Origin: a virus
Virus record (IMG/VR): IMGVR_UViG_3300039216_000106
Coordinates: 721-64,720 of that record
DNA length: 64,000 bases
Strand: one strand, 5' to 3'
Below are positions 9,970 through 57,438 of the stretch, one piece after another. Within the stretch, counting starts at the first letter, position 1. Every line of letters starts with the position of its first letter. The position numbers and the translations under genes were made by a program. The notes under the pieces are model-generated. The model searched no databases. It was given only the letters and a program-made list of their open reading frames with translations, and had not been told where the DNA came from.

Positions 9970-10011
9970 TGTGGATTTGTTGTAGGCTCGCGCCCAGAGG
10001 TTCGTAACGCA

Positions 10012-20177: not shown

Positions 20178-21440
20178 TTACCGCTTCGCCTTCCTGCTGA
20201 ACACCTTTTGCCGGGCGTAAAAGGCCGCCTTCCAGATAGACCTGAGGTCTTCACGCCCGGCTTGGTCGCATTCCATCGAAACCTGATCGTCAAGCGCGTT
20301 CAGCGGATCAAGGTCAAGCATCTCGGATTCCTTGATCTGATCGCGAACCCAATCGGCGAGCTGGTCAACCGTATTGATGTCAACGGGTTTCGGTGGCTCC
20401 GGCGCCTTCGGTGGCGAAGGAGGTGACGGCGGCGATGGTGGAGAAGCGGGGGCTTGCGGGGGGACGCTTTCCGCTTCTTCCTGGGGCTCATCGCCGCCGC
20501 CGTTCAGTTCCCGAAGCGCGACGCGATCAAGTTGCGCGTCTACATCTTCGGGGATAGGGTCGATTGTGTTGAGGGCGTGGCCCGGATTGTTTGTGATAGC
20601 CTTGGGCGCCGGTGGTGGACTTGGCGGTGATGCCAGCGCAGCGGGTTCGGCAACGCGCTCACGGCCAAAGTTGAACATCTCGTCATCGCGTGTCACGATG
20701 CGGTCCAGGCCGTCGCTTACTGGGACGGTTTTGATACCCCTGCGCAGAACCGTCTTGCGCCACGCCTCCGTGGTGAAAGTCCCCCACATCAGCCCGTCAG
20801 GGTCCTTGGATTGGGCGCGGACATCGGCGATTTCAAGGTCGTACATAACCTCACGGTGCAGAATTTCTCCGGTGCCTTCCCGCTTGAAAATGGCATAGGC
20901 GCCGATCATAGCACCGCGCGGCGCGTTCAGCTTCTTGGGCGGCCGGTGCGTGATATGGGGGTTGTCGCCTTCCTCCCGGTCCCATTCGTCATTTTCGTAG
21001 ACGACTTGGGTGTTGATGATAAGGTGGTCGAGTTCGCGGGCGCGCTTGCGAATGCCGTGCGTCATCGGAATATATTGCGCGGTCGGCACCCACTGGTCTT
21101 TCTGACCAAACTTGCCTTTGACCTTCGTCTTGTAGACGTTGATCACGGCTTCTTTGCCGTCCGGGATAAGACCGTCTTGGGCAGACTTGGTGATGGCGGA
21201 AAACAGGGACCGCGGCGATGCGTTGAGGACTTCCGGCTTTTGCCGGACGGCGGCCAGAACCGAATTCATAAACCGCTGACGACTGACATCGCTGGGCAGC
21301 ATCGACATGATGGCCGTCTCGCGCGATTTCAGTTCAGATTCGAACGCCTCCCACGTCGCCAGCGCGCGGCTCTGGCGCGGCTGATCGGCTGGCGGGGGTG
21401 ACGGCGGGCCGGCCTGTTCGGTGGTTCCGGTGTCGCTCAT
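20178..21440 (-). CDS. recT: RecT-family single-strand annealing protein with Pro-rich linker and extra C-terminal domain
   Basis: RecT-like core: FMNSVLAAVRQKPEVLNASPRSLFSAITKSAQDGLIPDGKEA...GAYAIFK...WRKTVLRRGIK. Followed by PPSPPSPPSPP linkers. Confidence 0.8.
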   Translation of the reverse strand: MSDTGTTEQAGPPSPPPADQPRQSRALATWEAFESELKSRETAIMSMLPSDVSRQRFMNSVLAAVRQKPEVLNASPRSLFSAITKSAQDGLIPDGKEAVINVYKTKVKGKFGQKDQWVPTAQYIPMTHGIRKRARELDHLIINTQVVYENDEWDREEGDNPHITHRPPKKLNAPRGAMIGAYAIFKREGTGEILHREVMYDLEIADVRAQSKDPDGLMWGTFTTEAWRKTVLRRGIKTVPVSDGLDRIVTRDDEMFNFGRERVAEPAALASPPSPPPAPKAITNNPGHALNTIDPIPEDVDAQLDRVALRELNGGGDEPQEEAESVPPQAPASPPSPPSPPSPPKAPEPPKPVDINTVDQLADWVRDQIKESEMLDLDPLNALDDQVSMECDQAGREDLRSIWKAAFYARQKVFSRKAKR

Positions 21441-21730
21441 TTGCGTGATCCAATGTTGTGTTGTTCGTCAAATGGGCGTTGGTCGCCAGTCAAGAGGCCG
21501 ATCATCACGGCAGGAATTCGTTTTTTCTTCGAATTCTTGGGCAATCCTTCGGTGTCTACGTATTCGCCAAACCCCTTTTTCCGAGGGTATGGGTTTGGGC
21601 GACGAACAACCAGCGTCAACCGACAGGCGCCCAGCACCTCGTAATAGCCGTCTTCTGAGGCCATATTCACGACAATAGCCTCCGGTGGAAGTTGCTGTAG
21701 GCGGGTAATCAAATCTGCAACGGTAAACAT
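21437..21730 (-). CDS. Hypothetical protein
   Basis: 97-aa ORF overlapping the RecT start by 4 nt. Confidence 0.45.
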   Translation of the reverse strand: MFTVADLITRLQQLPPEAIVVNMASEDGYYEVLGACRLTLVVRRPNPYPRKKGFGEYVDTEGLPKNSKKKRIPAVMIGLLTGDQRPFDEQHNIGSRK

Positions 21731-21740
21731 GACAATCCCT

Positions 21741-23630
21741 CTATCGAACGTCCATTTCTTCCGTCACCGTGACGCCGGGTACGGTTGACCCGGCCTCGCA
21801 GAACCGTTTCGCAGCCTTGGCGATGGCTTCGACCACGCCCGCATCGTTACGGACGAAGGCATAGGCGGCGTCTTGGTCCGTTACCGAATAAACCTTGATC
21901 ATCTTCTTGGTCGCGGCGCGTCCATAACCTCCGCGTATTGTCGCGCTAGGCGCGGGCTGAGGTGGCGCGGGCGGCGGTGGCGGGGGAGGAGGCGGCACAG
22001 GCTTGCCAGCCTCAATCGCGGCCAGACGGGCTTGCTCTGCCTTCCTGGCGGCTTCCAGCGCCAGCCGCTCGGTCTCGCGCTGCTTGGCCAGCTTGCGGTT
22101 TTCGTGGTCGCGGATCGCGACGCGGATCGCGTCGGCGGCGGCTTTCGCGGTATCGCGGAGCGGGAACCAGCGCTTGTCAACGGCGCGGCCAGCCTCAAGG
22201 TGAGGCGCCTTTTCCTTGTCGTGCTGCTTATCAGCTGTACCGGCCAATTCGAGCAGCCGCGACCGGGCGCCTTGTGCCTTCGCCGCCGTTTCGTCGTCGG
22301 TGATGGTCTTGTACGCTGTCGCGTTTTTCGAAGCGGATTCGATTTGCTCGCGAAGCTCTTCGGCTTCGTCTTTCGGCGGATTGTTGGCACCGGGCTCGGT
22401 CGAGGCTTCCGGCGCTTCCAAGGATTCCAGGACACCAGCGTCATCGTCGGGCCACTTGCCGGTCTGTTCCCAGGTGCGGTAAAATTCCTCGGTCACGGGA
22501 TACCGCACAACCCAAGTCCATAAGCTGAGTGCGTCGGTGATGGTTGGCGGGTTGCGGCCGATCATGGCCACAAGTTCGTCGCTTTCTCCGGGGAATATCG
22601 CCACCCCCGTGAACGGGCCGCCCTTCGACATGCGTTTGCGCCAAAATCCGCATTCCGGTTCCGTTTCATGGATTGGGCCGACATTACCGGCAAGCGCGTT
22701 GCGCCAGAATTCGTAGAGGTCTTTTCCCATTGCGTTCTCCTTGGTGTCTGGATACACGGCTTCAACCTGCCTTGTCAACATGGCAAACTCCATATTTCGG
22801 AGGAATGCCAAAAGCGCCACAGGGTCGGGGCCACGGACGGCGAAGGTATCAGGCCGAACCGTGACGGCAACGTGATCATTGAGCGTGACCAACCGGAGCG
22901 ACAGGCGCGCCTTGTCGGCGTTATCCATCACGGCGGCGCGGCGCTTGGGTTGTTTGATCTCGCCAGCGCGGGCAAGCAGCGTTTCCAGATCGCCATAGGC
23001 GTTGATCAGTTCAGCGGCGGTCTTGATACCGATACCCGGTACCCCCGGCACGTTGTCGGTGGAATCGCCCGCTAGCGATTGCACGTCCACCACCTTGGAC
23101 GGCGGCACGCCGAATTTTTCGATCACTTCGGCCGAGCCGATGGCCTTGTTCTTCATGCCGTCGAAGAGTTGCACCTGGCCATCGACGACAAGCTGCATCA
23201 GGTCCTTGTCGGACGACACGACGGTGACGCGGGCACCGGCCTCGCGCGCCAGCCGTGCATAGGTGGCGATAAGGTCATCCGCTTCGAACCCGGCCAATTC
23301 GACGCAAGAGACGCCAAAGGCCCGCGTAGCGTCTCGCACCAGCGGAATTTGCGGTCTAAGGTCTTCCGGGACCGGCGGCCGATTGGCCTTGTACGCGGGG
23401 TAAATGTCGTTCCGGAACGTGTGTTTTCCGGCGTCGAAGATTACCGCAACGTGCGTGGGCCGGTCGCCGTTTTGCATGTCGGCAAGTAGGCGCCACAGCA
23501 TGTTGCAGTAGCCGGAAACCGCGCCGGTCGGAAGCCCATCGGACTTTCGGGTCAGCGGCGGCAAGGCATGATAGGCCCGGAACAAATATCCGGACCCATC
23601 AATGAGGTAGAGGTGATCGCCGCGGGTCAT
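21741..23630 (-). CDS. 5'-3' exonuclease (Pol I N-terminal / FEN family) fused to about 340 aa of uncharacterised domains
   Basis: The N-terminus (LYLIDGSGYLFRAYHALPPL..GLPTGAV...AVIFDAG..TFRN..YP.YKANR...GFEADDLIAT...VVSSDKDLMQLV) matches the 53EXO signature. This is followed by unknown sequence, a coiled coil and a P9 linker. Confidence 0.8.
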   Translation of the reverse strand: MTRGDHLYLIDGSGYLFRAYHALPPLTRKSDGLPTGAVSGYCNMLWRLLADMQNGDRPTHVAVIFDAGKHTFRNDIYPAYKANRPPVPEDLRPQIPLVRDATRAFGVSCVELAGFEADDLIATYARLAREAGARVTVVSSDKDLMQLVVDGQVQLFDGMKNKAIGSAEVIEKFGVPPSKVVDVQSLAGDSTDNVPGVPGIGIKTAAELINAYGDLETLLARAGEIKQPKRRAAVMDNADKARLSLRLVTLNDHVAVTVRPDTFAVRGPDPVALLAFLRNMEFAMLTRQVEAVYPDTKENAMGKDLYEFWRNALAGNVGPIHETEPECGFWRKRMSKGGPFTGVAIFPGESDELVAMIGRNPPTITDALSLWTWVVRYPVTEEFYRTWEQTGKWPDDDAGVLESLEAPEASTEPGANNPPKDEAEELREQIESASKNATAYKTITDDETAAKAQGARSRLLELAGTADKQHDKEKAPHLEAGRAVDKRWFPLRDTAKAAADAIRVAIRDHENRKLAKQRETERLALEAARKAEQARLAAIEAGKPVPPPPPPPPPAPPQPAPSATIRGGYGRAATKKMIKVYSVTDQDAAYAFVRNDAGVVEAIAKAAKRFCEAGSTVPGVTVTEEMDVR

Positions 23631-27545: not shown

Positions 27546-27836
27546 ATGGCAACGCCGTGGGGAATTATCCCGTCTGCAAAGGTTTGGATACGTGTCGCGT
27601 CCGAAGAGGCTGTGGCGGCTGGGCTTGACCCGGTGCGGCTCATGGCAGGCGACAAGGCGCGGCCTTATGTGAAGGCGCGCTGGCGGGCATGGGCGCGGCT
27701 GAGAGAAGAAAACCCACGTTACTCGTTAATCGGCATCGGTCGCCGCACCGGCCACGATCACAGCAGCGTCAGATATGGCCTATTACGGCTACGTGGTTTC
27801 AGTTCAGACCAAGTCAAGCGGAGCGCGTTGGCGTGA
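27546..27836 (+). CDS. DnaA domain-IV-like HTH protein
   Basis: YSLIGIGRRTGHDHSSVRYGLLRL resembles the DnaA C-terminal DNA-binding motif (..IG..fgrDHtTV.ha...). Confidence 0.5.
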   Translation: MATPWGIIPSAKVWIRVASEEAVAAGLDPVRLMAGDKARPYVKARWRAWARLREENPRYSLIGIGRRTGHDHSSVRYGLLRLRGFSSDQVKRSALA

Positions 27837-29230
27837 ACGAATATCAAAAGTTTCTCGCACACAAAGCGCAACTCGGTTCCAATGATGGGTTTAAGCCTAT
27901 CGTAATGCCGTCGTTTTTGTTCAACTTTCAACAAGCACTAGTCGAGTGGGCTATCCACAAGGGACGTGGCGCCATCTTTGCCGACTGCGGCATGGGCAAG
28001 ACGCCGATGCAATTGGTATGGGCTGAAAACGTCGTTCGCAAGACGAATAAGCCTGTGTTGATCTTGACGCCGCTGGCCGTCGCACAACAGACCTGCAGAG
28101 AGGCGAAGAAATTCGACATTGAGGCTCATGTTTCGCAAGACGGAACAGTACATCCCGGCATCAACATCGTAAATTATGAGCGCCTACACTACTTTGACCA
28201 ATCCGTTTTTGCTGGCGCCGTATGTGACGAAAGTGCCATTCTCAAATCGTTTGACGGCGCGAGGCGGCAAGAGATAACCGAATTCATGCGGCGGATGCGG
28301 TATCGTCTTCTTTGCACGGCAACGCCATCACCGAACGAATACATCGAGTTGGGAACGAGTAGCGAGGCTCTTGGCTATCTCGGTTACATGGATATGTTGA
28401 GCCGGTTTTTCAAAAACGACCAAGGCAATTCGATCAAGGCTCACATCATCCGGCACAAAGGGAAGTCTTTCCGGGCGTTGGATGAGGGGGCAAAATGGCG
28501 CTTCAAGGGGCACGCCGAAGGTCCGTTCTGGAAATGGGTTTGCTCGTGGGCGCGCGCCATTCGCAAGCCTTCCGACCTCGGATTTGATGACGGCGCATTT
28601 ATTCTCCCGCCGCTGATCGAACGTCAGCACATGGTTGACGCACAATCGCTTCCTGACGGAACTCTGTTTGCGCTTCCCGCTGTTGGCTTACAAGAGCAAC
28701 GTGAGGAGCGGCGGCGCACCATTCAAGAGCGATGTGAAAAGGCCGCGTCCCTGGTCAATAAAACCGGGCGGCCGGCGACTGTGTGGTGCAGCTTGAACGA
28801 CGAAGGAAATCTGCTCGAGAAGTTGATCCCGGATTGCGTACAGGTGAGCGGCGCCGATAGCGACGACGCGAAAGAGGTGAAGTTTCTGGCCTTTGTCGAT
28901 GGTAGCGCGCGGGTACTGGTAACGAAGGAAAAAATCGGTGCATGGGGGCTGAACTTCCAGCACTGCGCACATTCCGTCTCGTTCCCAACCCACTCGTTTG
29001 AAGGATACTACCAAGGCATTCGGCGCTTCTGGCGCTTCGGACAGAAAAACCCCGTCAGATCCGATATTGTTGCGACCGAAGGAGAAAAAAACGTGCTGGA
29101 TAATTTGCAGCGCAAATCAAAGGCTGCGGACAAGATGTTTGCGGGGCTTATCGCATACATGAACGAAGCCCAGGGCGTTGACCGCAGCGTTAAATTCACC
29201 AAGAAAGAGGAGTTTCCGTCGTGGCTATAG
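27833..29230 (+). CDS. SNF2/DEAD-like superfamily-2 helicase
   Basis: GTGA start. Motif I is ADCGMGKTPMQL and motif II is VCDESAILKS. C-terminal helicase motifs include VSFPTHSFEGYYQGIRRFWRFGQ. Confidence 0.8.
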   Translation: MNEYQKFLAHKAQLGSNDGFKPIVMPSFLFNFQQALVEWAIHKGRGAIFADCGMGKTPMQLVWAENVVRKTNKPVLILTPLAVAQQTCREAKKFDIEAHVSQDGTVHPGINIVNYERLHYFDQSVFAGAVCDESAILKSFDGARRQEITEFMRRMRYRLLCTATPSPNEYIELGTSSEALGYLGYMDMLSRFFKNDQGNSIKAHIIRHKGKSFRALDEGAKWRFKGHAEGPFWKWVCSWARAIRKPSDLGFDDGAFILPPLIERQHMVDAQSLPDGTLFALPAVGLQEQREERRRTIQERCEKAASLVNKTGRPATVWCSLNDEGNLLEKLIPDCVQVSGADSDDAKEVKFLAFVDGSARVLVTKEKIGAWGLNFQHCAHSVSFPTHSFEGYYQGIRRFWRFGQKNPVRSDIVATEGEKNVLDNLQRKSKAADKMFAGLIAYMNEAQGVDRSVKFTKKEEFPSWL

Positions 29231-30219
29231 CGAACAGCGACATCACAAATCGGTGGGCCATCTATAACGGTGATTGCATCGAGGTTATGCAGAAAATGCC
29301 AGCGGAAAAAATACACCTGTCGGTCTATTCTCCGCCATTCGGCGGCTTGTTCCAATATTCAAGCTCTGACCGTGACCTGTCAAACTGCCTGGACTACGAC
29401 AAGTTTTTTGAGCATTACGCCTTTGTCGTTCGTGAGTTGGCGCGACTGACTTTGCCGGGGCGTATGACGGCGGTTCACTGCATGGACGTTCCATCCGGCA
29501 ACACTGGAACAGATTACCTTGTCGATTTCCCCGGTGACATCATCCGTCTACACCAAAAAGAGGGGTGGAATTTCGTCGCCCGTTACGCCGTGTGGAAGGA
29601 ACCTCTTGCGGTGCGCAATCGCACAATGGCAAAAAACTTGGCCCACCGATCCTTGGTCGAAGATAGCTCGAGGTGCAGTGTAGCATCCGCCGACTATTTG
29701 CTCGTGTTCCGGCGCAAGGGAAAAAATCCAATCCCCATCACGCACCCCACCGGATTGATGGAATACGCAGGCGAGCGGCGCCCACCAAACGACGTTCTGC
29801 AATGGCGAGGCCATACGGGAAACCAGATCGAAAACCGTTTCTCACATTGGATTTGGCGACAATACGCTTCGGCGTTCTGGGATGACATCCGCATCGGTCG
29901 CGTGCTGCCGTTCCGGGATTCTAAGGATGAGATGGACGAAAAGCACGTCCACCCGTTACAGCTTGACGTGATCGATCGCGTCCTTGTCCTTTGGAGCAAC
30001 CCCGGTGAAACTGTGTTCACGCCTTTTATGGGTGTCGGTTCCGAGGTCTATTCTGCCGTCAGGAACGGCCGGAAGGCGCTTGGCGTCGAATTGAAAGCAA
30101 GCTATTACGAACAGGCTGTTCGCAACATGCGCGCCGTTGATGTTCCAGAGGCAGACCAATCGATATTCGAGTTTGCGGAAGACAAACCGATGGACGAAGA
30201 ACTTGAAATAAAACCGTGA
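29221..30219 (+). CDS. Beta-class N6-adenine or N4-cytosine DNA methyltransferase
   Basis: Motif IV (SVYSPPFGG) precedes motif I (VFTPFMGVGSE), which is the beta-class order. Confidence 0.8.
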   Translation: MAIANSDITNRWAIYNGDCIEVMQKMPAEKIHLSVYSPPFGGLFQYSSSDRDLSNCLDYDKFFEHYAFVVRELARLTLPGRMTAVHCMDVPSGNTGTDYLVDFPGDIIRLHQKEGWNFVARYAVWKEPLAVRNRTMAKNLAHRSLVEDSSRCSVASADYLLVFRRKGKNPIPITHPTGLMEYAGERRPPNDVLQWRGHTGNQIENRFSHWIWRQYASAFWDDIRIGRVLPFRDSKDEMDEKHVHPLQLDVIDRVLVLWSNPGETVFTPFMGVGSEVYSAVRNGRKALGVELKASYYEQAVRNMRAVDVPEADQSIFEFAEDKPMDEELEIKP

Positions 30220-34539: not shown

Positions 34540-35187
34540 CTATGCGGTCTTAGCCGCTTCGATGTGATCGAGCGCCGCGCGCCCGATGTATTCCGAGTAT
34601 GCGGGTGGGACTGCTTCCCGAAATTTGTCGCGAGGCATCCAGTCAATTCCCATCGCTTCACGCGCCTGATCGACGCCGGAGAAATTTCCGACAACATGCA
34701 TAAAATCCCCAGGCTGCGGGCGGCGCCCCATCTTGCGGACTGGAGCGATATGCGGCGGGTGGGCGGGTTGGTCGATCGGGAACGAGCATTCGAAAATGCG
34801 ATGGCGATACGTCTTTAGGCCAAACATCGCGCCGCAAAGTTCAAGCGGGTTAATGAGTGGCGCACCCGGCACATTTTCAATTACGTGGGGAATATGCGGA
34901 AACCATAACAGGCGGCTGCGCAATTCCTCAATCAAGTCTGGATGTTCGCGACCACGAATGCGCTGTGCGTTGGTGTATGCCTGACACGGAGGGCTCGCCC
35001 AGATAAAATCAAACCCTTGCGGGTCGAAGTCCATGGCGTTGCCTAGTTGAAATTGAAACGGGTAGTGCGGCTGAGGTTCGATGTCGATCCCAACGACTTG
35101 GAAGCCAGCGCGGAATAGGCCCATCGCAGAGCCACCAGCACAGCAAAAAAGATCAAGCGCGCGAGGTTTCACCAAATCGCTCCTCAT
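34540..35187 (-). CDS. Short DNA (cytosine-5) methyltransferase
   Basis: Motif I is LDLFCCAGG, motif IV is ASPPCQAYT, motif VI is VIENVPG and the motif X-like segment is EAVPPAYSEYIG. Only 215 aa. Confidence 0.75.
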   Translation of the reverse strand: MRSDLVKPRALDLFCCAGGSAMGLFRAGFQVVGIDIEPQPHYPFQFQLGNAMDFDPQGFDFIWASPPCQAYTNAQRIRGREHPDLIEELRSRLLWFPHIPHVIENVPGAPLINPLELCGAMFGLKTYRHRIFECSFPIDQPAHPPHIAPVRKMGRRPQPGDFMHVVGNFSGVDQAREAMGIDWMPRDKFREAVPPAYSEYIGRAALDHIEAAKTA

Positions 35188-39486: not shown

Positions 39487-39858
39487 ATGCGAGGCGGCAA
39501 ACGAACGGGCGCCGGACGAAAAAAGGGAGCAATTACAGCGGCTACGCGGCGCCGGAAGGAAATCATAGAAGAGGCGACAAATGCCGGGATTACCCCCCTT
39601 GAGCTGTCGTTACGGCTGATGCGGGCGCTTTGGGCTAAGGCGATCAACCCCAAGGGTGAAATAATCAACGACGGCAAGGCGATGCAGGCGCACATTATCG
39701 CGAAAGACGTGGCGCCATTCGTACATCCGAAGCTGGCCACGATTGAAATGGGCGGCAAAGGTGGGGGCGCGATTGAAATGCACCACCAAGTCATCACCGC
39801 CGAGATGACGGCGAAGGAGGCGGCCGAAGCATATGCAGCCTCCTTGCACAAGAAGTAA
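39487..39858 (+). CDS. terS: Terminase small subunit
   Basis: Basic N-terminus (MRGGKRTGAGRKKGAIT) with GAGGAAA RBS. Directly upstream of, and overlapping, the large subunit gene. Confidence 0.65.
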   Translation: MRGGKRTGAGRKKGAITAATRRRKEIIEEATNAGITPLELSLRLMRALWAKAINPKGEIINDGKAMQAHIIAKDVAPFVHPKLATIEMGGKGGGAIEMHHQVITAEMTAKEAAEAYAASLHKK

Positions 39859-41584
39859 GGAAAACTGGCCGCCGGATTACGTTGCGGTCTACGCTTGGCG
39901 GCAGCAACAGGTATTGCACCTGCGCGCCCACCCAGAGCTTATCGCGGGCGCGAAAGAATATTACCGAACGCGGCCGGCCGAATTCATCAACCACTGGTGC
40001 GACACCTACGACCCGCGCGCCGCAGGGTCAGATGTTCCGACGCGGGTGCCGTTTATCCTGTTCCCGCGCCAGGACGATCTAGTCGAATTTCTCTATGCCT
40101 GCCTCCGTGGCGAGGCGTCGGGGCTGATCGAGAAGTGCCGCGACATGGGCGCGACGTGGGATTGCTGCGGCTTCTCGGTGTGGCTGTGGCTGTTTTGGGA
40201 GGGCGCCGCGGTTGGCTGGGGAAGCCGCAAGGAAGAGCTGGTCGATAAGCTTGGCGACCCGAAGTCGATTTTCGACAAAATCCGCACGCTGGTGTTCAAC
40301 CTGCCGGACTTTTTTCTGCCGAAGGGGTTCAACCCGCGAATTCATAGTGGGTTCATGAAGCTGATCAACCCGGAAAATGGGGCGACGATCACGGGCGAGG
40401 CGGGCGACAATATCGGACGTGGTGGGCGCACGCTCTGTACCTTCAAAGATGAGTCTGCACATTACGAGCATCCCGAAGCGATTGAGGCGGCGCTGTCCGA
40501 AAACACCCGCGTTCAGATTGATCTTTCATCGGTTAACGGCGTCGGTAACGTGTTCCACCGGCGCCGGGAAAATGGCGTCGAGTGGGTACGTGGCGCGCCG
40601 GTGGTTAAGGATCGGGCCAACGTGTTCGTGATGGACTGGCGCGACCACCCGACCAAGACGAAAGAGTGGTACGACACCCGCAAATCCAAATTCGAGAGCG
40701 AGGGGCTGGGCCACATTTTCGCCCAAGAGGTGGACCGGAACTACGCTGCAGCCGTCGCCGGCATCATCATCAAATCGGACTGGGTCAAGGCCGCGATCGA
40801 CGCGCATATCACGCTCGGTATTCCGGAAACCGGGGCATGGGGTGCCGCGCTGGACGTGGCCGATGACGTCGAGGGCGGTGGTAACGACCGTAACGCGCTG
40901 ATCAAGCGCCGCGGTATTGTGCTCAAAGCCGCCGACGAATGGGGCGAGATGGACACCGGCAAGACGGCCAGGCGCGCCGCCTCGTTTTGCGATGGGCATG
41001 GCCAGATCGCGGTCCAGTACGATTGCATCGGGGTAGGCGCCGGGGTCAAGGCTGAGGTCAACCGGCTGATCGAAGACAAGTTGATGCCGCCGTACATCCG
41101 GTTTATCCCTTGGAACGCCGCGGCCAGCCCGCAACACCCCAAGCTGCGCGTGATCAAGCAGGAAGACGACAGCGAGGACAAGGATAGCCCGACCAACGAG
41201 GATTTTTACGCCAACCTGAAGGCGCAGGGCTGGTGGGAGCTGCGGTTCCGGTTCTACCGCACCTATCAGGCGGTGATGGCCGGCGCCCGCTACGACCCGC
41301 GCCGCAACCGCGTGATCGGCCCGCGCATCAATTTCGACCCGAACGACCTAATTTCGATCGACGGCACAATCCCGGTGATACGCCAGATCGAAAAGGAACT
41401 CAGCCAGCCCACGGCCGGGCAGTCCACCAAGATGAAATTGCTGGTCAACAAGGCGCCGGACGGCACCAGATCGCCGAACCTGGGCGACGCGATCATGATG
41501 GCGTATTTCCCGATCGATATTGCAATCCCAGACTGGCTTAAGCCCAAAGGCCCCCCTCCCGTGGTGTCGATATATGGGAGGTGA
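39833..41584 (+). CDS. terL: Terminase large subunit
   Basis: 583 aa. Walker-A-variant region is EKCRDMGATW and the Walker B region is TFKDESAHY. A nuclease-like C-terminal half follows. Confidence 0.85.
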   Translation: MQPPCTRSKENWPPDYVAVYAWRQQQVLHLRAHPELIAGAKEYYRTRPAEFINHWCDTYDPRAAGSDVPTRVPFILFPRQDDLVEFLYACLRGEASGLIEKCRDMGATWDCCGFSVWLWLFWEGAAVGWGSRKEELVDKLGDPKSIFDKIRTLVFNLPDFFLPKGFNPRIHSGFMKLINPENGATITGEAGDNIGRGGRTLCTFKDESAHYEHPEAIEAALSENTRVQIDLSSVNGVGNVFHRRRENGVEWVRGAPVVKDRANVFVMDWRDHPTKTKEWYDTRKSKFESEGLGHIFAQEVDRNYAAAVAGIIIKSDWVKAAIDAHITLGIPETGAWGAALDVADDVEGGGNDRNALIKRRGIVLKAADEWGEMDTGKTARRAASFCDGHGQIAVQYDCIGVGAGVKAEVNRLIEDKLMPPYIRFIPWNAAASPQHPKLRVIKQEDDSEDKDSPTNEDFYANLKAQGWWELRFRFYRTYQAVMAGARYDPRRNRVIGPRINFDPNDLISIDGTIPVIRQIEKELSQPTAGQSTKMKLLVNKAPDGTRSPNLGDAIMMAYFPIDIAIPDWLKPKGPPPVVSIYGR

Positions 41585-43605: not shown

Positions 43606-43995
43606 ATGACCAACCACCCGAACAGAAAGAAGACCGCGGCCCCGCTGCACTGGCGGCAGGGCGACGTACTGCTTGTCGCCACGGATCGGATTCCGGCCGA
43701 CGCCGCGCCGGTCGGACGCGACGAACACAACCGCTTGGTCCTCGCCAACGGCGAAGTCACCGGCCACGCCCACGTCTTCCGCGGCAAGGGCATCTGCGGT
43801 TTCACCAAACTCGACAACAAGGACATCGAATACCTTCTGGTCGAGACCGGTGGCGGTTCCGGCGCCACGCTCAAGCACGAGTTGGTCAGCGGCGCCAAGG
43901 CCGACCATGATCCGCAGCAAATTCCGGACGGCAAATATCTGCTTGGCCAGCAGGTCGAGTATACGCCGGCAGAACTTATCCGTGCGAGCGACTAA
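43606..43995 (+). CDS. Hypothetical beta-rich protein (QGDVLL...GEVTGHAH family seen in phages)
   Basis: 129 aa with an AGGAAAG RBS. Motifs are WRQGDVLLV, LANGEVTGHAH and HDPQQIPDGKY. Confidence 0.5.
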   Translation: MTNHPNRKKTAAPLHWRQGDVLLVATDRIPADAAPVGRDEHNRLVLANGEVTGHAHVFRGKGICGFTKLDNKDIEYLLVETGGGSGATLKHELVSGAKADHDPQQIPDGKYLLGQQVEYTPAELIRASD

Positions 43996-43996
43996 C

Positions 43997-45289
43997 ATGG
44001 CACAAAAACTCGAACTCACAGACGAGCGAAAAGCCATCATCACTGCTTCGCTCGAAGAGTGGATGGCAGCTGGACTGTCCACTGCGCCGGCTGATTTTGG
44101 TGCGGCAGAGGAAGCCATTGCCGTCCTCTATAGCCACATCGGCCGTAAGCGGCCCCATTTTGTTCGGCTCAGTTCTCCGCTCGGTGCAGAACTTTACATA
44201 AACTTGCTTTGTCAAACTTGGCCCAAGGTTGATTTGAAGTCGCTCAGGGACCAGCTCAGGGACCAGCTCGGGGGCCAGCTCTGGGACCAGCTCGGGGACC
44301 AGCTCGGGGACCAGCTCGGGGACCAGCTCGGGGGCCAGCTCGGGGACCAGCTCGGGGGCCAGCTCAGGGACCAGCTCGGGGACCAGCTCTGGGACCAGCT
44401 CGGGGGCCAGCTCGGGGACCAGCTCTGGGACCAGCTCGGGGGCCAGCTCGGGGGCCAGCTCAGGGACCAGCTCGGGGACCAGCTCTGGGACCAGCTCGGG
44501 GGCCAGCTCGGGGACCAGCTCTGGGACCAGCTCAGGGACCAGCTCGGGGGCCAGCTCAGGGACCAGCTCAGGGACCAGAAACTGAACTATATGGGAACGT
44601 GGTTCTGGGGCCAATGGGATTATTTATGGGCATGGCTGGATGGTGGTCGCCGGATTGGCGCTCATTACGATGACAAGCAGAACGCCATGCTTGATGCACA
44701 CTGCACACTAGTCAAATCGTGCGGCTGGTTTTATCCGTTCGATGATTTCTGCATCATCACGGATCGACCGGAAATTATCGCGCGTGATGATCGTGGGAGG
44801 CCGCACTCTGACAATGGCCCTGCACTACGTTATCGTGACGGCTACAGTCTGTACGCGTCACATGGCGTGCGGGTCCCGACCGATCTTGGCGTTGACCACT
44901 CCAAGATCACGGTAGCGCGGATCGACGCGGAACAGAATGCCGAGGTCCGTCGAGTTTTGATCGGCTGGTTCGGCATGGACCGGTATTTGCGGGAATCTGG
45001 CGCTACGGTTGTGCATGAGGACTTTGACGCGCTGGGCAATCCGCGGCGCCTGTTCCGGCGTGAACAGCCGGACGACGAAGCGATTGTCGCCGTTGAGGTG
45101 ACGGATTCGACACCGGTTCCGGATGGTGAGGCCAGAAAGTATGTGATGCGCGTTGATCCGACCAAGTATGACGGCCGCGCTGGCCGGGAGTGCCACGCTG
45201 CGATTGCATCGACGTGGCGGCGCAAGGATGATCTGTCCAAGATGATGTTTGCACGACCCGAGGATTATGCACCGGTAGGCGAGACGTGA
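43997..45289 (+). CDS. Tetrapeptide-repeat protein with DUF6745-like C-terminal domain (by recollection)
   Basis: 430 aa. About 80 aa of N-terminus are followed by 28 x (R/G/W)(D/G)QL. The C-terminal domain is WFWGQWDYLWAWLDG...CGWFYPFDDFCIITDRPE...NGPALRYRDGYSLYASHGVRVP. Confidence 0.7.
   Translation: MAQKLELTDERKAIITASLEEWMAAGLSTAPADFGAAEEAIAVLYSHIGRKRPHFVRLSSPLGAELYINLLCQTWPKVDLKSLRDQLRDQLGGQLWDQLGDQLGDQLGDQLGGQLGDQLGGQLRDQLGDQLWDQLGGQLGDQLWDQLGGQLGGQLRDQLGDQLWDQLGGQLGDQLWDQLRDQLGGQLRDQLRDQKLNYMGTWFWGQWDYLWAWLDGGRRIGAHYDDKQNAMLDAHCTLVKSCGWFYPFDDFCIITDRPEIIARDDRGRPHSDNGPALRYRDGYSLYASHGVRVPTDLGVDHSKITVARIDAEQNAEVRRVLIGWFGMDRYLRESGATVVHEDFDALGNPRRLFRREQPDDEAIVAVEVTDSTPVPDGEARKYVMRVDPTKYDGRAGRECHAAIASTWRRKDDLSKMMFARPEDYAPVGET
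44246..44578 (+). repeat. Tandem array of about 27.75 copies of a 12-bp unit [A/G/T]GGG[A/G]CCAGCTC, in frame
   Basis: Read directly from the sequence. Only two positions of the 12-mer vary (nt 1 and nt 5). Confidence 0.95.
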
Positions 45290-47961: not shown

Positions 47962-48171
47962 ATGAACGGTTGGCAACCGATTGAGACCGCGCCAGATGGG
48001 TATACCGATGGCAAGTTTCACTACGTCCTGTTCCTTGGCGTCAGCGTTTCTGGCGCGTTCAGCCACCCCGTGGTCGTAAATGGCTGGATGGATAGCGACC
48101 GCAAACCAGTGCAATGGTATCACTATCGCCTGAAAATTACCCACTGGATGCCAATGCCGGAACTGCCATGA
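47962..48171 (+). CDS. DUF551-domain protein
   Basis: Contains WQPIETAPDG......VLFLG.......THWMPMPELP, the DUF551 pattern. Confidence 0.6.
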   Translation: MNGWQPIETAPDGYTDGKFHYVLFLGVSVSGAFSHPVVVNGWMDSDRKPVQWYHYRLKITHWMPMPELP

Positions 48172-48800
48172 TTGCGGCGTTGTTTGTCGAGACGAACGGC
48201 TGCTACTTCGGACTTGAAGGCGTGGACCCATGGGACGAAACGCGAGACGCGCGGCTCTATCCCGGCCCGCACCCCGTCGTCGCGCATCCGCCCTGCCAGC
48301 GATGGGGGAGGTTCTGGCATGGCAGCACGCGCAAACCGCATCAATTCAAACTTGGCGATGACGGCGGCTGCTTTGCCTCTGCGCTGGCTTCTGTGCGGCA
48401 CTGGGGTGGCGTGCTTGAGCATCCGGCAGACAGCCGGACCTGGTCGGCGTTCAACCTCAACGCCCCGCCGCGCGAAGGCGGGTGGATCGCCGCCGATATG
48501 TCAGGCGGCTGGACGTGCTACGTTGAGCAGGGATTTTACGGTCACCCTTCACGCAAGCCAACTTGGCTGTACGCCCATGGCGTCGATCTGCCGGCGCTTC
48601 ACTGGGGCCGCGGCAATCAGCGCTTGCCCGAATGGATGATTGAGCGTTACGGTTACGAAAAGGCGCGGCGCATCGGCGTTGTTGCTATGATCGGCGGTAA
48701 GGACAAGACGAAGATCCGCAACGCCACGCCGCCGCAGTTCCGCGATCTTTTATTGTCGATTGCGCGGACCGCGGCCGTCGCACAAACCAAGGCAGCCTGA
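48168..48800 (+). CDS. C5-methyltransferase-like protein without a recognisable SAM-binding motif I
   Basis: Contains HPPCQRW (motif IV-like), LEHPADS (motif VI-like) and NATPPQFRDLLLSI (motif X-like). The N-terminus MIAALFVETNGCYFG lacks FxGxG. Confidence 0.45.
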   Translation: MIAALFVETNGCYFGLEGVDPWDETRDARLYPGPHPVVAHPPCQRWGRFWHGSTRKPHQFKLGDDGGCFASALASVRHWGGVLEHPADSRTWSAFNLNAPPREGGWIAADMSGGWTCYVEQGFYGHPSRKPTWLYAHGVDLPALHWGRGNQRLPEWMIERYGYEKARRIGVVAMIGGKDKTKIRNATPPQFRDLLLSIARTAAVAQTKAA

Positions 48801-48804
48801 CCCC

Positions 48805-49224
48805 ATGCGTGACACCATCATCCGCCGCATCCGCCTCCCCCAGCCCAAGATGGGCGGCAAGATGTTCCTTATCCAGGAGCCTGGGCTTTACGTATTCGAG
48901 GAAGGCCCGGCGACGCTTATCACGCTGGCCGTAACGCACGCCGGGTCAGGGACCATCCTTGGTTACGACGGCGTGCCGGACGAAAACGGGCGGTTCCCGG
49001 ACGAGGAAATGCAGGAATGGATGCCGGACGGCAGCCGCAACCCGGACTACGACACCCGCAACGGCCGGGCGATCTACCGCGCCACACCTGCAGTAATGGG
49101 CTCTTGGATGGCGTCAGGCGGCTGTTTTCACGGTCTGGTCATCCATGCGGACGGCGGCGGCCATTCGGTCTGCCCGTTCGCCACTGTAGTCTGGAACGCA
49201 TACAAGGCGAGGGAGAAGACATGA
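48805..49224 (+). CDS. Hypothetical protein
   Basis: 139 aa, tightly packed between its neighbours. Confidence 0.45.
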   Translation: MRDTIIRRIRLPQPKMGGKMFLIQEPGLYVFEEGPATLITLAVTHAGSGTILGYDGVPDENGRFPDEEMQEWMPDGSRNPDYDTRNGRAIYRATPAVMGSWMASGGCFHGLVIHADGGGHSVCPFATVVWNAYKAREKT

Positions 49225-50114
49225 GCAAGTCGATTTGCATCTATCACGGCGGCTGCGATGACGGGTTTGCCGCGGCATGGGCGCTCCGCACATCAATGGT
49301 GCCTGACACATTCGAGTTTCACCCCGGCGTCTACGGTAACGCTCCTCCTGACGTTTCTGATCGGCACGTTGTTCTTGTCGATTTCAGCTACAAGCGCCCA
49401 ATTCTGACCGAAATGGCGAAGGCAGCAAAGTCAATTCTCATTCTCGACCACCACAAGACGGCGGCCGAAGACCTCGCCGGAATGCCGCACCCCGGCACCC
49501 GCGACGAATGGTGTTTCAGTAAGGCGCCGGACGGCGTCGCGGCGATCTTCGATATGACCCGAAGCGGCTCCGGTATCGCGTGGGATTTCTTTCACCCGTA
49601 TCAGGCGCGCCCTGCGTTCATCAATTATGTCGAGGACCGCGACCTTTGGCGCAAGGCGCTTCCGAACGGCGACGAATTTACCATCGCTCTGCGGTCACAT
49701 CCACAAGACTTTGAGACGTGGGACAGGCTTGTCGCCGCAGGCCCAGCGCCCCTGATCGAAGAAGGCCGCGCAATTCAGCGCTATTATCGGCTTCGCGTCG
49801 AGGAACTGAAGCAAAGCTCCTATCTCGCAAAGATTGCTTGGGGCCATGACACCAGAGACCTTACGCGGTCCACCATCGCCATCGCGAACGCGCCATATTT
49901 TGCGGCGAGTGAGGTTGCGGGCGAACTATGCGCCGTCGATGGTGCCGAGTTTGGGGCAAGCTATTTCGAGGTACGGCCTGGACAATGGCAATATTCGCTA
50001 CGATCCCGTGGTGATTTCGATGTTTCGGCGGTCGCCAAGTGCTTCGGTGGCGGCGGGCACAAGAACGCAAGCGGTTTCACCATGCCATGGCCCGTTCACG
50101 AGAAATTGCCGTGA
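49221..50114 (+). CDS. DHH/DHHA1-family phosphoesterase
   Basis: Motifs are IYHGGCDDG (motif I), VLVDFS (II), ILDHHKT (III, DHH) and GGGGHKNASGF (DHHA1 GGGH). Confidence 0.75.
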   Translation: MSKSICIYHGGCDDGFAAAWALRTSMVPDTFEFHPGVYGNAPPDVSDRHVVLVDFSYKRPILTEMAKAAKSILILDHHKTAAEDLAGMPHPGTRDEWCFSKAPDGVAAIFDMTRSGSGIAWDFFHPYQARPAFINYVEDRDLWRKALPNGDEFTIALRSHPQDFETWDRLVAAGPAPLIEEGRAIQRYYRLRVEELKQSSYLAKIAWGHDTRDLTRSTIAIANAPYFAASEVAGELCAVDGAEFGASYFEVRPGQWQYSLRSRGDFDVSAVAKCFGGGGHKNASGFTMPWPVHEKLP

Positions 50115-50341
50115 AGCAGCACCGCACCACCGGCCGCCCCGTGAACAACTCCGTCAGGCACAGCCGGTGCCAGAAGATCACACGTTACGCCATCGCGACC
50201 GCTTTTGCGATTGCACACACCGAACAGTTGCCGGAAACTCTACCCTGCGCATGGTGTGACGGCGATTTCCCGTTGGACGAATTTAGGTGGGTAAACGGCG
50301 AGAAGATCGGCGACACCAAACCCAAAGAGGAAGTGGCATGA
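50111..50341 (+). CDS. Hypothetical protein
   Basis: 76 aa counted from a GTG that overlaps the DHH stop (GTGA). Confidence 0.3.
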   Translation: MKQHRTTGRPVNNSVRHSRCQKITRYAIATAFAIAHTEQLPETLPCAWCDGDFPLDEFRWVNGEKIGDTKPKEEVA

Positions 50342-50631
50342 CCGGTCCCAAAGTCGTCACGCTCAGCGGCGAGCCCATTGAACACGCAATTGAGGGCAAC
50401 ACACCGCTGGCCACGCTGAAGCGGCTCGTCGAGAAGGTCGAAAGCGGCGATATTGTGCTCAAAACCGTGCTGATTTTGGGGGAAAGTCCAAGTCCAAAAG
50501 ACCCAAGTTGCGTTTTCACGAAGGCATGGGACAGCGATATCACGGTGGAGCGGATGATTACGATCATGGAAATGACGAAATTCGACCTAATCGCCAAGTC
50601 GATGGGCATTATCCGGGAGGACGACGCATGA
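50338..50631 (+). CDS. Hypothetical protein
   Basis: 97 aa with ATGA overlap. Confidence 0.45.
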   Translation: MTGPKVVTLSGEPIEHAIEGNTPLATLKRLVEKVESGDIVLKTVLILGESPSPKDPSCVFTKAWDSDITVERMITIMEMTKFDLIAKSMGIIREDDA

Positions 50632-51233
50632 TCAAGACGCGCTACGAGATGACTGAATTGACCACGTACAAAATTGGTGGAGCATCAGCCGACGAAGCGC
50701 TTGTGGTTGTGGATGGCCAGCAAATATTGACCCAGTGCCTTGAGGCCGATACTGCGGCCGGCACCGCCTTGGTCTACGAGACCGACGAACACGGCCATTT
50801 CGTCCGCGACGGCGTGAACCGCAAGACCAAGATGATCCACAGCGCCAGCCTCCGCATCATGCGCCGGATCGATCCGAAGCCCAACACAGATCCCAGCGTT
50901 GAGGCGATCATCGCGGCGCAGAAAGCGCATTACCGGCGCCGGGCCGACGAAGCGGTTGGCGCTGAGGGCAAATTGTGGGCCAAATTGATGCTTGGCCTCT
51001 GCGACCCGCTGGTGCGATGGGTCAATAGCCATGCCGTCCGCGCCGCCAAGGGCGACGTGCTCCGCGCCGTGACATGTGCTGCAGCCTGCCTGGCGGCCCA
51101 GGCGATCAAAAATACCGGCGACACCGACGACATTGCCCAGCGAAAATACGTCGAGACGCTGTTTACCGACGAATTGTCGCGGCTTTTGAAGCAGCAAGTC
51201 GCGGGCCAGACCATCACCCGCACGGATGCGTGA
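50628..51233 (+). CDS. Hypothetical protein
   Basis: 201 aa with ATGA overlap. Confidence 0.5.
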   Translation: MIKTRYEMTELTTYKIGGASADEALVVVDGQQILTQCLEADTAAGTALVYETDEHGHFVRDGVNRKTKMIHSASLRIMRRIDPKPNTDPSVEAIIAAQKAHYRRRADEAVGAEGKLWAKLMLGLCDPLVRWVNSHAVRAAKGDVLRAVTCAAACLAAQAIKNTGDTDDIAQRKYVETLFTDELSRLLKQQVAGQTITRTDA

Positions 51234-51244
51234 AGGAGAAAGAC

Positions 51245-51577
51245 ATGGATTTTACCCAAAGGGTTTCGCTACTACGACGTGAAATGATCGAAAACGTGCA
51301 TCCTCTGGAAAAAGAGGTTTTGATCGGGGCTTCTGACGCGGCCAAAGCCGGGGGAGCGGAAACACTATCAGAAACTGAGTTTGTGGAAGGATATAAGATT
51401 GGCGACGATCTTGCCGACGTGGCCAACAGCATGATTCGAGATGCTCGGAACTTTGGCGTTCGTATTGGCCAGACGATCTCTCCAGACGCGGCGAAAAGAT
51501 TGGTGGTTGATGCCGTTTTTATGAGCTTTTCTGAAAAAAGCGACATCATCCTCTTGAAATTGACGGCTAATGCTTGA
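51245..51577 (+). CDS. Hypothetical protein
   Basis: 110 aa with a strong GAAGGAGAAAG RBS. Confidence 0.5.
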   Translation: MDFTQRVSLLRREMIENVHPLEKEVLIGASDAAKAGGAETLSETEFVEGYKIGDDLADVANSMIRDARNFGVRIGQTISPDAAKRLVVDAVFMSFSEKSDIILLKLTANA

Positions 51578-51923
51578 ACCCCCCGAAATCGACATGCGCA
51601 CGGTGCGGGACATCTACACGCCGCCCGCGCCCGGCACGTTGATGCGCATGGTCAGTCTGCACAAGAGCGGGCTGTACCGGCTGGCGAGGCGTTCGAGTGA
51701 ACTCTACTCGGTTTTGATCGTCGGGCAGGGGGCTTGGGCGAAGGCGCGGATCATGACCGGCACCGGTCGGCCGGTCTGGGAAATGCCTTCGGCCTTCAGT
51801 GGTTCATTTCTCCTGCTCGGGTATTGCGAAGAAGGTATCATCGCCCACCTTCACGCATTCGAGCAAGGCGACAGTCTCAATTTCTCGGTCCAGTTCAGAG
51901 AACCGGACGCCAAGCTGGTTTGA
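51570..51923 (+). CDS. Hypothetical protein
   Basis: 117 aa, overlapping the upstream gene by 8 nt. Confidence 0.45.
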   Translation: MLEPPEIDMRTVRDIYTPPAPGTLMRMVSLHKSGLYRLARRSSELYSVLIVGQGAWAKARIMTGTGRPVWEMPSAFSGSFLLLGYCEEGIIAHLHAFEQGDSLNFSVQFREPDAKLV

Positions 51924-51997
51924 TAACGCGTTACATCATTCCCCGTTTGTAAGTTCCGCCGGTTGCGATAAACTGCGCACCGAAAGGTTCGTAACGC
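51924..51997. promoter_or_regulatory. Perfect palindrome TAACGCGTTA (51924-51933) plus a GTAACGC box abutting the ATG at 51998
   Basis: aaAGGTTCGTAACGCATG here and gaGGTTCGTAACGCAATG at 9997-10014 share a 14-nt string. Confidence 0.45.
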
Positions 51998-52222
51998 ATG
52001 GCGCGAATTCCCATTCCGTCACCAACGTCTGGCATTCTGTCGTCTCAGGCGGCGGAAGACGGGGCTTTGATGGAAGAGGGCGAATCCATCGGTCAGGTTG
52101 AGGTCATGAAAATGTTTACGGATGTCATGTCCCCCGCGACCGGCCGCATCAAATGGCTCATTGGCCTTGGTGAATGCGTGGAATACGACGACATCCTTGC
52201 CGAAATAGAAACTGAGGGCTGA
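51998..52222 (+). CDS. Biotinyl/lipoyl-carrier domain protein (VMKM biotinylation-type motif)
   Basis: 74 aa. SPTSGIL......GALMEEGESIGQVEVMKMFTDVMSPATGRIKWLIGLGECVEYDDILAEIE aligns with the BCCP C-terminal domain (E-A/V-M-K-M). Confidence 0.65.
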   Translation: MARIPIPSPTSGILSSQAAEDGALMEEGESIGQVEVMKMFTDVMSPATGRIKWLIGLGECVEYDDILAEIETEG

Positions 52223-52227
52223 AGCCT

Positions 52228-52932
52228 ATGCGCAATCTCGTAGATTACCAATCCGCGCCGTACAATGGGCCGTTTTCCATCAGTGCGGCGCTGCTCACCG
52301 GGGTTGCTGCGGCGCCCTACGAGGGCCTTTGGGTTCCGATCCAATGGGCCAAGTCCGGAAGCATCGAGTTGAGCGGCACGTTCAGCGCCATCGATGTTGA
52401 CCTCTATGTCAGCAACGCGGAACAGGCGCCGGCCAACCAGTATGTTGCGACGTTGGGCGGTTCTGCAACTGAGGCGGATCACGTCGGCATCACATTTACG
52501 TCTCCGCTCATTTCGGGCGGCAAGACGGTAAGCTACACCGTGGCGAACGGAAACGACTTGACCGCGATCGGCGCTGGCCTCGCCGCCGCAATCAACGCGG
52601 ACACCACATTGGCTGCGCTCGGCATCACGGCTGGAGCCGCGTCTGGCGTCGTCACCGTCTCATGGCCCAGCACGTCACCGACCGAAGGCGCAGGGCAGTT
52701 CTCGTCGCCATCGTCGCCGTCCCAAGCCAACGACCTCAGCCTCGCCTCAGCGCTTTCCGCAGGCGCCACAGAGACGATCACATTCACGACCGGCACCAGT
52801 GGGCTCAAACTCGGTTCGACCATAAGCGCCGCCGGTCTGACCTCAATCGCCACATCGTATCGCTGGATCAAGGCTCGCCTCACCAGCATGACCGGGTCAT
52901 CCGCCGTCGCCAACTACGCCGGGGTCGCGTAA
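52228..52932 (+). CDS. Virion-associated protein carrying one copy of the shared ~75-aa module
   Basis: 234 aa. The module spans aa 72-146 (ATLGGSATEADHVGITF...VSYTVANGNDLTAIGAGLAAAINADTTLAALGITAGAASGVVTV). Confidence 0.5.
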   Translation: MRNLVDYQSAPYNGPFSISAALLTGVAAAPYEGLWVPIQWAKSGSIELSGTFSAIDVDLYVSNAEQAPANQYVATLGGSATEADHVGITFTSPLISGGKTVSYTVANGNDLTAIGAGLAAAINADTTLAALGITAGAASGVVTVSWPSTSPTEGAGQFSSPSSPSQANDLSLASALSAGATETITFTTGTSGLKLGSTISAAGLTSIATSYRWIKARLTSMTGSSAVANYAGVA

Positions 52933-56802: not shown

Positions 56803-57438
56803 ATGTCGTCACCCGGATCAGAACCGGTAACGCCTCCGAACCCAGCACCGACACCAGCCGCACCCGTAACGCCGCCCACTCCGACGCCAGCTACGCCGGT
56901 AGAGCCGCATGAGACGCCGGAACAGGCTCGGTCTCGGCTCAACGCTGAGGCCGCTGCATACCGCATTCAGGCCAAGGATGCGCGGGAATTGGCGAGGGAC
57001 GCAGAAGCCAAACTGGCGGCGCTGAAAACCTCCGCCGAAACAGACAAGCAATCAGCCATTGCGGCGGAAAGGTCAAAAGTGGACGCGTTGAAACCTCGGA
57101 TCATCGAAGCGGAACTCAAGGCGGCGCTGGTCGGCGAAGGCGTGCTCGATCCCGAACTGGTTGGCCTTGTCGGCCGCGACGGCATTACGGTGGACGAAAA
57201 CGGAGCGGTTACCGGTGTGACAGAGGCTGTGGCGAAGTTCAAGGCGGCGAAGCCCAATTTCTTCCGCGCGCCCGCGGCGCCCGCACCGGCCCCAGTTCCG
57301 GCCCCAACATCCAGCGGCAACCCGTCAGCCCCGCCGGCCAATCCCAATCCGAGCCCGACGAACGTCAAAGACATGTCGGCGTCTCAGTACCGAGATTACA
57401 AGTCCGGCATTCGGCGCCGGTTGCGTGGCGGGCGGTAA
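56803..57438 (+). CDS. Capsid scaffolding protein
   Basis: 211 aa with GAGGA RBS. Pro-rich N-terminus, then a long Ala/Glu/Lys coiled coil. Located just upstream of the capsid gene. Confidence 0.65.
   Translation: MSSPGSEPVTPPNPAPTPAAPVTPPTPTPATPVEPHETPEQARSRLNAEAAAYRIQAKDARELARDAEAKLAALKTSAETDKQSAIAAERSKVDALKPRIIEAELKAALVGEGVLDPELVGLVGRDGITVDENGAVTGVTEAVAKFKAAKPNFFRAPAAPAPAPVPAPTSSGNPSAPPANPNPSPTNVKDMSASQYRDYKSGIRRRLRGGR

Follow-up and report, generated by a model that had tools for sequence, protein, structure and literature searches.

The window analysed here, a stretch of 64,000 nucleotides representing almost the entire 64.7-kb contig of a tailed phage with a contractile tail, carries a small gene whose 74-aa product is almost certainly a free-standing biotinyl (biotin-acceptor) domain. 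The 74-aa open reading frame (ORF) is a real gene, and its likeness to biotinyl domains is far beyond chance. Outside a few carboxylases and decarboxylases, in which it is the arm carrying the carboxyl group, biotin has hardly any known use in biology. The phage lineage described here, as a whole, retains a biotin-acceptor domain inside its capsid-assembly operon, with the lysine strongly selected and with no such enzyme found among the larger ORFs of the window. As judged from the sequence, this lysine (K38) is probably biotinylated in vivo by the host ligase, and the explanation that we tentatively prefer overall is that of a host-biotinylated accessory component of the head or capsid.

The biotinyl domain and its genomic surroundings

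The main features of the window are collected in Table 1. The biotinyl ORF begins with an ATG at 51998, the sole possible start because an in-frame TAA (51992-51994) lies directly upstream, and its translation, MARIPIPSPTSGILSSQAAEDGALMEEGESIGQVEVMKMFTDVMSPATGRIKWLIGLGECVEYDDILAEIETEG, is identical to that quoted in the first-pass annotation. The latter had described the product as a domain of the biotin carboxyl carrier type with an intact VMKM site, a description that is supported by the HMM score, the predicted fold and the conservation of the family. The Pfam profile Biotin_lipoyl (PF00364) matches residues 11-70 of the 74-aa protein with E=1e-9 and 38.5 bits, above its gathering score of 22.1, and the top sequence match among solved structures is the biotinyl domain of human ACC2 (2kcc; E=1.5e-6, residues 6-72), with EVMKM standing opposite EVMKM. 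The target lysine of the acceptor motif is K38, at the tip of an E-V-M-K-M hairpin (codons of E35 at 52100-52102, V36 at 52103-52105, M37 at 52106-52108, K38 at 52109-52111 and M39 at 52112-52114), and the half-motifs SP.SG and SPATG are visible in the sequence. Identity as a lipoyl domain or GcvH was rejected, the E-x-M-K hairpin being present and the lipoyl-type D-K-A motif being absent from the protein.

Table 1. Positions of the main features in the window
Feature	Positions	Strand	Evidence or remarks
Tail sheath	62-1921		
Baseplate wedge	10012-11154		
RecT and exonuclease	20178-23630		
Helicase	27689-29230		
Large terminase (TerL)	39833-41584		
Portal protein, 575 aa	46233-47960	+	Next to TerL and 5' of the capsid gene in all related loci; homolog in Ralstonia phage Hyacinthe annotated as portal
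X, 139 aa, paralog of X'	48805-49224	+	hhalign; directly after the portal gene in most relatives
X', 117 aa, predicted eight-strand beta-sandwich (jelly-roll)	51570-51923	+	AF2; always just upstream of the biotinyl gene
Upstream spacer, 74 nt	51924-51997	+	Palindrome TAACGCGTTA at 51925-51934; aGGTTCGTAACGC directly before the ATG
Free-standing biotinyl (biotin-acceptor) domain protein, 74 aa	51998-52222	+	ORF, PF00364, AF2, Foldseek and invariant K
234-aa protein	52228-52932	+	Start 6 nt past the biotinyl stop; present in part of the clade only
Fibre-like virion protein, 1189 aa	53003-56572	+	phrog_4201 tail fiber, E=3.3e-22; phrog_24595 virion structural protein, E=1.3e-12
Head scaffolding protein	56803-57438	+	phrog_194, E=2.7e-15; PF06810 Phage_scaffold on the identical gene in L001
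Major capsid protein, 457 aa	58134-59507	+	phrog_1357, E=1.2e-24; 53-56% identical to the capsid proteins of L029, L032 and L023

The AF2 model, computed from an alignment of 55 family sequences, has a mean pLDDT of 97.6 and six main strands, and places K38 in a two-residue turn between strands 30-36 and 39-44. Both the model and its Foldseek comparison correspond to the flattened beta-barrel (barrel-sandwich hybrid) fold with its quasi-twofold symmetry, the top 50 matches in the PDB aligning to solved biotinyl domains with TM scores of 0.79-0.90. The leading matches (rmsd 1.0-1.4 Å) are the biotinyl domains of MCC, ACC, PCC and PC together with free carrier proteins, one of them being the P. 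horikoshii carrier that was crystallised with its ligase (2ejf_C; rmsd 1.0 Å over 69 columns).

The portal gene forms the upstream border of a conserved interval in which the biotinyl gene is preceded by two related genes, here called X and X'. The two proteins are paralogs (hhalign probability 96.9%, E=1.3e-10), are encoded by adjacent genes in most relatives and are fused in some (L133, 7795-8571; L032, 4871-5728, L032/L033; L036, 3776-4741; L142, 4213-4863). Neither X nor X' matched any Pfam, PHROG or NCBIfam family, and a comparison of their profiles with PDB sequences returned nothing. The AF2 model of X' (pLDDT 87.5) is an eight-strand beta-sandwich for which Foldseek found generic jelly rolls only (GOLD, CUB, nucleoplasmin, cupin and viral jelly rolls; TM at most 0.5), so that an enzymatic partner is not revealed by these neighbours. 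The invariant positions of X and X' are mainly Gly, aromatic residues, Arg and Ser, with no recognisable metal-binding or catalytic motif among them.

In the window, about 2.4 kb of DNA (49221-51577) intervene between X and X', encoding a DHH phosphoesterase (phrog_4771, E=1.9e-80) and four small ORFs, and the splitting of the pair indicates that the head module tolerates accessory insertions. Non-structural accessory genes found in the portal-scaffold interval of the window are this phosphoesterase and a methylase-like gene. The gap between terminase and portal also holds a coding sequence, for a 538-aa protein (43673-45289) with DUF6745 (E=7e-45) and DUF2939. More generally, the larger ORFs of the window match methylases, a metallopeptidase, nucleases and similar proteins; no match to a carboxylase, a biotin or lipoate ligase or a 2-oxoacid dehydrogenase was found among them, in agreement with the earlier statement that no carboxylase, BirA or lipoyl-enzyme partner lies nearby.

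The gene had also been placed immediately before a virion-module protein and a large fibre-like gene, and the 234-aa and 1189-aa proteins do follow in that order. The 1189-aa gene, inserted after the 234-aa gene and before that of the scaffold, is variable and is missing from this place in L114, L120 and L125, and homologs of the 234-aa protein are encoded directly 3' of the biotinyl gene in eight loci (L004, L005, L007, L009, L028, L114, L120 and L125). The 234-aa protein gave no NCBIfam match. As partial matches show, RHS-type proteins and a tail sheath also contain its central domain (about residues 73-208) as a repeat; a metagenome scan with the whole protein returned mostly such repeat proteins and sheaths, which have the central domain alone in common with it. 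This domain has the pattern G.K..GD...T..D..L.GG....YTV..GDT...IA..LAAAINAD..L...G (L011-L021; L117, 9828-12128), and it is found in tandem at the N-termini of RHS/YD-type toxins encoded by large bacterial contigs, as well as in a phage tail-sheath protein. From its sequence relatives, it looks like a mobile surface-display domain.

The first-pass annotation had credited the biotinyl gene with a box-containing upstream region of its own. The box is present, GTAACGC abutting the ATG at 51991-51997, but the motif is genome-wide rather than specific to this gene: the window has 38 sites where 7.5 +/- 2.6 are expected (about 5-fold), a number reached in 0 of 100 shuffles. The form aGGTTCGTAACGCa(a)ATG is common to the biotinyl gene and the baseplate-wedge gene (site at 10004-10010), and more copies lie shortly 5' of other late genes, with a triple array (8810/8827/8843) located 5' of the baseplate spike gene; sites at 56759, 57877 and 41588 are further examples of the heptamer. 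GTAACGC may be a regulatory, promoter or methylation motif of the phage. The window also contains DNA-methyltransferase-like genes at 29221-30219, 34540-35187 (- strand) and 48168-48800, a set comprising an N6_N4_Mtase, a C-5 methylase fragment and a phrog_12600 protein with a PPCQ motif, which may be related to the over-represented motif.

Conservation of the protein and of its place in the head module

When the single 74-aa protein was used as query, a word-indexed homolog search returned the protein itself alone and a search for related loci in IMG/VR gave no match. The family surfaced only in an exhaustive HMMER search of 1.84 billion cluster representatives, which yielded 118 matches at E<=1e-3, about half of them standing alone at 56-90 aa and the remainder being ordinary cellular carboxylase, decarboxylase or E2 proteins. 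The family has at least 80 distinct proteins of about 70-80 aa and about 36% identity, in which the equivalent of K38 never varies. In an alignment of 57 of the small proteins (mean column identity 36%), two positions never change (K38 and G49) and four more reach a conservation of at least 90% (G12, E35, M37 and G58); this is the generic pattern of biotinyl domains, with no extra conserved surface in the 57-protein alignment that would mark a capsid-binding face. Since these 57 proteins were gathered by similarity to the query and are therefore possibly a biased set, a second sample was drawn via the capsid protein, and every biotinyl-type ORF of the capsid-selected loci turned out to have E-x-M-K. 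In the two sets pooled (81 sequences), Glu occupies position -3 in 81/81, Met position -1 in 79/81 and Lys the acceptor position in 81/81, and position +1 varies (M 34, T 21, L 8, V 7, others 11). The three closest pairs gave Nei-Gojobori dN/dS ratios of 0.05, 0.21 and 0.14. By these sequence comparisons, the biotinyl gene is under purifying selection, which acts above all on the hairpin recognised by the ligase.

The identical 74-aa protein is encoded on contigs from several independent metagenomes. Some members of the family, among them P0096, P0103 and P0113, are longer: a few have a short C-terminal extension with a common tail, ...(I/V)DLSR(I/V)N or ...LIDMRK, and two have N-terminal extensions of 30-50 aa. 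These terminal extensions may be docking peptides.

In every genomic context that was read, the gene order is TerL, portal, X/X', biotinyl gene, zero to three genes, scaffold (PF06810) and capsid protein, with one to three small proteins encoded between the portal and biotinyl genes. In L029-L031, the end of X' and the biotinyl gene overlap, and 16 nt separate the stop of the latter from the scaffold gene. The distribution of the gene was followed in 104 loci sampled via the major capsid protein as an independent marker, each with the whole portal-to-capsid interval and some representing the same phage from different collections. At a capsid identity of at least 49%, 27 of 28 loci have the biotinyl gene and all 28 have X/X'; at 47% or less, the corresponding numbers are 0 and 1 of 76 loci. 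In all 27 carrier loci the gene lies between the portal and the scaffold/capsid genes, as expected if it is inherited with the head module, and nowhere in the 104 loci does it occur without X/X'. The converse is seen in L036 (50%) and L142 (47%), where X-X' is fused and the biotinyl gene is missing. The X/X' orphan jelly-roll proteins near the portal gene mark the same subclade as the biotinyl gene.

Prophages of Acetobacteraceae, Acidocella, Acidisoma, Komagataeibacter and Paraburkholderia account for most of the other distant loci, which have portal, scaffold and capsid genes only. The closest cultured phages, Ralstonia phages Hyacinthe and Raharianne and Komagataeibacter phage phiKX1, lack the biotinyl gene and have the order portal, 180-aa protein, capsid protein; among the deposited genomes searched, no cultured phage carries the gene. 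The pattern in the 104 loci, together with these cultured sisters, indicates that the biotinyl gene is nested within the X/X' clade and that capsids of this type can be built without it. Contigs bearing the cassette measure 64.7-79.8 kb, against 46-53 kb for the cultured sisters Hyacinthe and phiKX1, a size difference that would fit accessory proteins for a larger capsid.

Possible roles of the biotinyl protein

Biotin protein ligases are known to modify any correctly folded biotinyl domain, across kingdoms, and homologs that are no longer modified lose the E-x-M-K motif. It is for these two reasons that biotinylation of the phage protein by the host ligase is considered very probable. In the pathway that we propose, the protein would be made late in infection from the head-morphogenesis operon, and the ligase of the host would recognise its fold and E-x-M-K hairpin and transfer biotin to K38, the product serving no carboxylase. 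The gene would belong to an accessory cassette (X, X', the biotinyl protein and often the 234-aa protein) that one myovirus subclade inserted between portal and scaffold. The most likely role of the protein would be that of an accessory capsid or head-assembly component, with the result that particles would carry a biotinylated protein.

An accessory role in the virion or head is favoured by the fixed place of the gene in the head operon, by its strict co-occurrence with X/X' and by its absence from sisters that build capsids. The same sisters assemble their capsids without the cassette, which therefore is not a core morphogenetic factor, and position alone is weak evidence for a head role because non-structural accessory genes lodge in the same interval. 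On gene position and co-occurrence, an association of the biotinyl protein with the virion or head may be suggested, with due reserve. The first-pass annotation had left three roles side by side, namely a decoy substrate for the host ligase, a biotinylated virion component and a swinging arm for an unknown phage enzyme; they are not separable by computation, although the weights shift toward the virion or head, with the decoy less favoured.

It is more doubtful that the particles of the clade carry a host-biotinylated protein whose biotin is a functional part of the virion. We know of no benefit of biotin on a capsid; it could, for example, be a ligand for a biotin-binding receptor or for avidin-like proteins, or else a hydrophobic plug locking X/X' onto an enlarged capsid. 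If true, bacteriophages would have their first structural protein with a natural cofactor modification, and uncultured virions would offer a natural handle for capture with streptavidin. A protein both modified and present in the particle would mean a new structural or adhesive use of the vitamin by a virus, and streptavidin capture of virions from soil or peat should then enrich this clade.

The strongest of the other explanations, unlikely as it is, makes the protein a non-structural acceptor acting late in infection, either as a decoy or as a mimic of a holo-carrier. An abundant small domain would soak up biotinyl-AMP and host ligase, or the holo-protein would rival the AccB of the host, be it for biotin carboxylase, for carboxyltransferase or for PII-type regulators; either way, the synthesis of fatty acids or the regulation of biotin would be altered. 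It is known that over-produced apo-biotinyl domains derepress the bio operon of E. coli, and the phage protein is, by sequence and fold, an intact ligase substrate for which a phage enzyme partner was not found in the window. Moreover, over half of the members have T/L/V/S/F at +1 instead of the Met customary in carboxylases, a relaxation that fits selection for modification and not for carboxyl transfer; this argument is weak, however, because true AccB proteins vary at +1 too (EAMKT in L101). As for the mimic, the 74-aa protein is missing the N-terminal domain by which AccB binds biotin carboxylase (TIGR00531, 23 bits with the cut-off at 115). A metabolic decoy would be expected to be early and more mobile, which the fixed late position in the head operon and the strict co-occurrence with X/X' speak against, and a decoy titrating BirA is less favoured because a late structural operon is an odd place for it. 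The BirA-repression part of the idea also needs a class II ligase in the host, and the nearest prophage relatives are in Acetobacteraceae. If the protein were a decoy after all, it would represent a new form of phage interference with host lipid or biotin metabolism.

Somewhat less likely still is an unmodified structural beta-barrel, whose fold would serve simply as a small building block or as an assembly factor and in which the lysine hairpin would be kept for a protein contact or cross-link and not for biotin. Barrel-sandwich domains are used structurally elsewhere, as in membrane-fusion proteins, faint matches to BSH_* Pfam families are also seen for the biotinyl protein, and its neighbours are small beta-rich proteins. 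However, in plant BADC and in the hybrid domains of membrane-fusion proteins, the loss of modification was accompanied by loss of the E-x-M-K signature, unlike in the phage family, which retains each of the residues E, M and K in 79-81 of 81 sequences with an overall identity of about 36%; any folded domain with such a hairpin is, besides, expected to be a ligase substrate.

It is improbable that a new phage enzyme, for which X and/or X' would be the most plausible candidates, uses the protein as a swinging-arm carrier and acts on its biotinyl- or acyl-lysine. The constant company of X/X' wherever the biotinyl gene occurs, the paralogy and occasional fusion of these two proteins and the presence of cupin-type enzymes among the low-scoring fold matches of X' would agree with such an arrangement. 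Set against them are the invariant residues of X/X', which offer no metal-binding or catalytic motif, the generic character of the X' matches, the occurrence of X-X' in two loci devoid of the biotinyl gene (L036 and L142), and the size of X and X' (117-139 aa), far below that of any known biotin-dependent catalytic subunit. Finally, a functionless passenger fragment recently captured from a host carboxylase, for which it can be said that the nearest sequence matches are cellular carboxylase domains, was rejected as highly improbable because it is contradicted by an old, lineage-inherited family (about 36% identity, position kept, dN/dS 0.05-0.21) with identical copies in several independent metagenomes.

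Comparison with known biotinyl and viral proteins

The biotinyl domains of carboxylases (human ACC2, 2kcc/2dn8; MCC, 8f41/8rth; P. horikoshii BCCP, 2ejf/2d5d) resemble the phage protein in fold (TM 0.8-0.9, rmsd 1.0-1.4 Å), in the E-x-M-K hairpin, in having the Lys about 36 residues from the C-terminus and in lacking the "thumb" insertion. They differ in that the phage protein stands alone at 74 aa, in a head-assembly operon and with no biotin carboxylase or carboxyltransferase found in the window. AccB of the E. coli type (TIGR00531; 1bdo) has a homologous C-terminal acceptor domain, phage residues 19-71 aligning to 1bdo, but the phage protein has neither the N-terminal biotin-carboxylase-binding domain nor the Pro/Ala linker, and the distance from the SP..G strand to the Lys is 31 residues compared with 38 in the AccB of L101, meaning that the thumb is missing. 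Identity as an AccB/BCCP subunit was rejected on the profile scores (TIGR00531, 23.0 bits with a cut-off of 115.2; NF005457, 31.7 with a cut-off of 87), and no biotin carboxylase was found in the window.

In size class (63-77 aa) and as lone biotinyl domains, the small carriers of Na+-translocating decarboxylases and the 1.3S subunit of transcarboxylase (1dcz) are like the phage protein. The genes of such cellular carriers (P0133 and P0163) adjoin OAD_beta and Carboxyl_trans genes, which those of the phage family never do, and identity as a decarboxylase or transcarboxylase carrier subunit was rejected for want of a carboxyltransferase or OAD_beta neighbour in the phage loci. A tblastn search of deposited phages gave one weak match, MT835614, which was judged to be a bacterial methylmalonyl/oxaloacetate-decarboxylase operon and not a phage carrier. 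This record, "UNVERIFIED: Bacteriophage sp." from human faeces, encodes in MT835614.1 10518-20712 (L149) a carboxyltransferase, a small subunit, a 136-aa biotin carrier, OAD_beta and an OadA-like alpha subunit, and the segment is probably of bacterial and not of phage origin.

Plant BADC proteins, which resemble BCCP, inhibit ACCase and have lost the biotinyl lysine, offer a precedent for a carrier-like domain acting outside catalysis, and hence for a decoy role, but the phage family always keeps the lysine. Among the viral proteins of BFVD, the biotinyl fold was found only in two giant-virus proteins with lipoyl-binding domains (Hyperionvirus A0A3G5A815 and Edafosvirus A0A3G4ZUT5; TM 0.81-0.82, E about 1e-3). 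These are of the lipoyl type, come from giant viruses of eukaryotic hosts and are 16-18% identical to the phage protein; no phage counterpart was found in BFVD, PHROGs or INPHARED.

The head decoration proteins (lambda gpD, T4 Soc/Hoc and phage L Dec) are small, beta-rich products of head modules and are dispensable in relatives, a likeness that is a functional analogy only; their fold is unrelated to the biotinyl domain. We know of no decoration protein that carries a cofactor, and the full-text literature searched gave no description of a phage biotinyl-domain protein. Compared with all these systems, what is new is the context and not the fold: a clade of uncultured phages makes a conserved use of a biotin-acceptor domain that has apparently not been described before.
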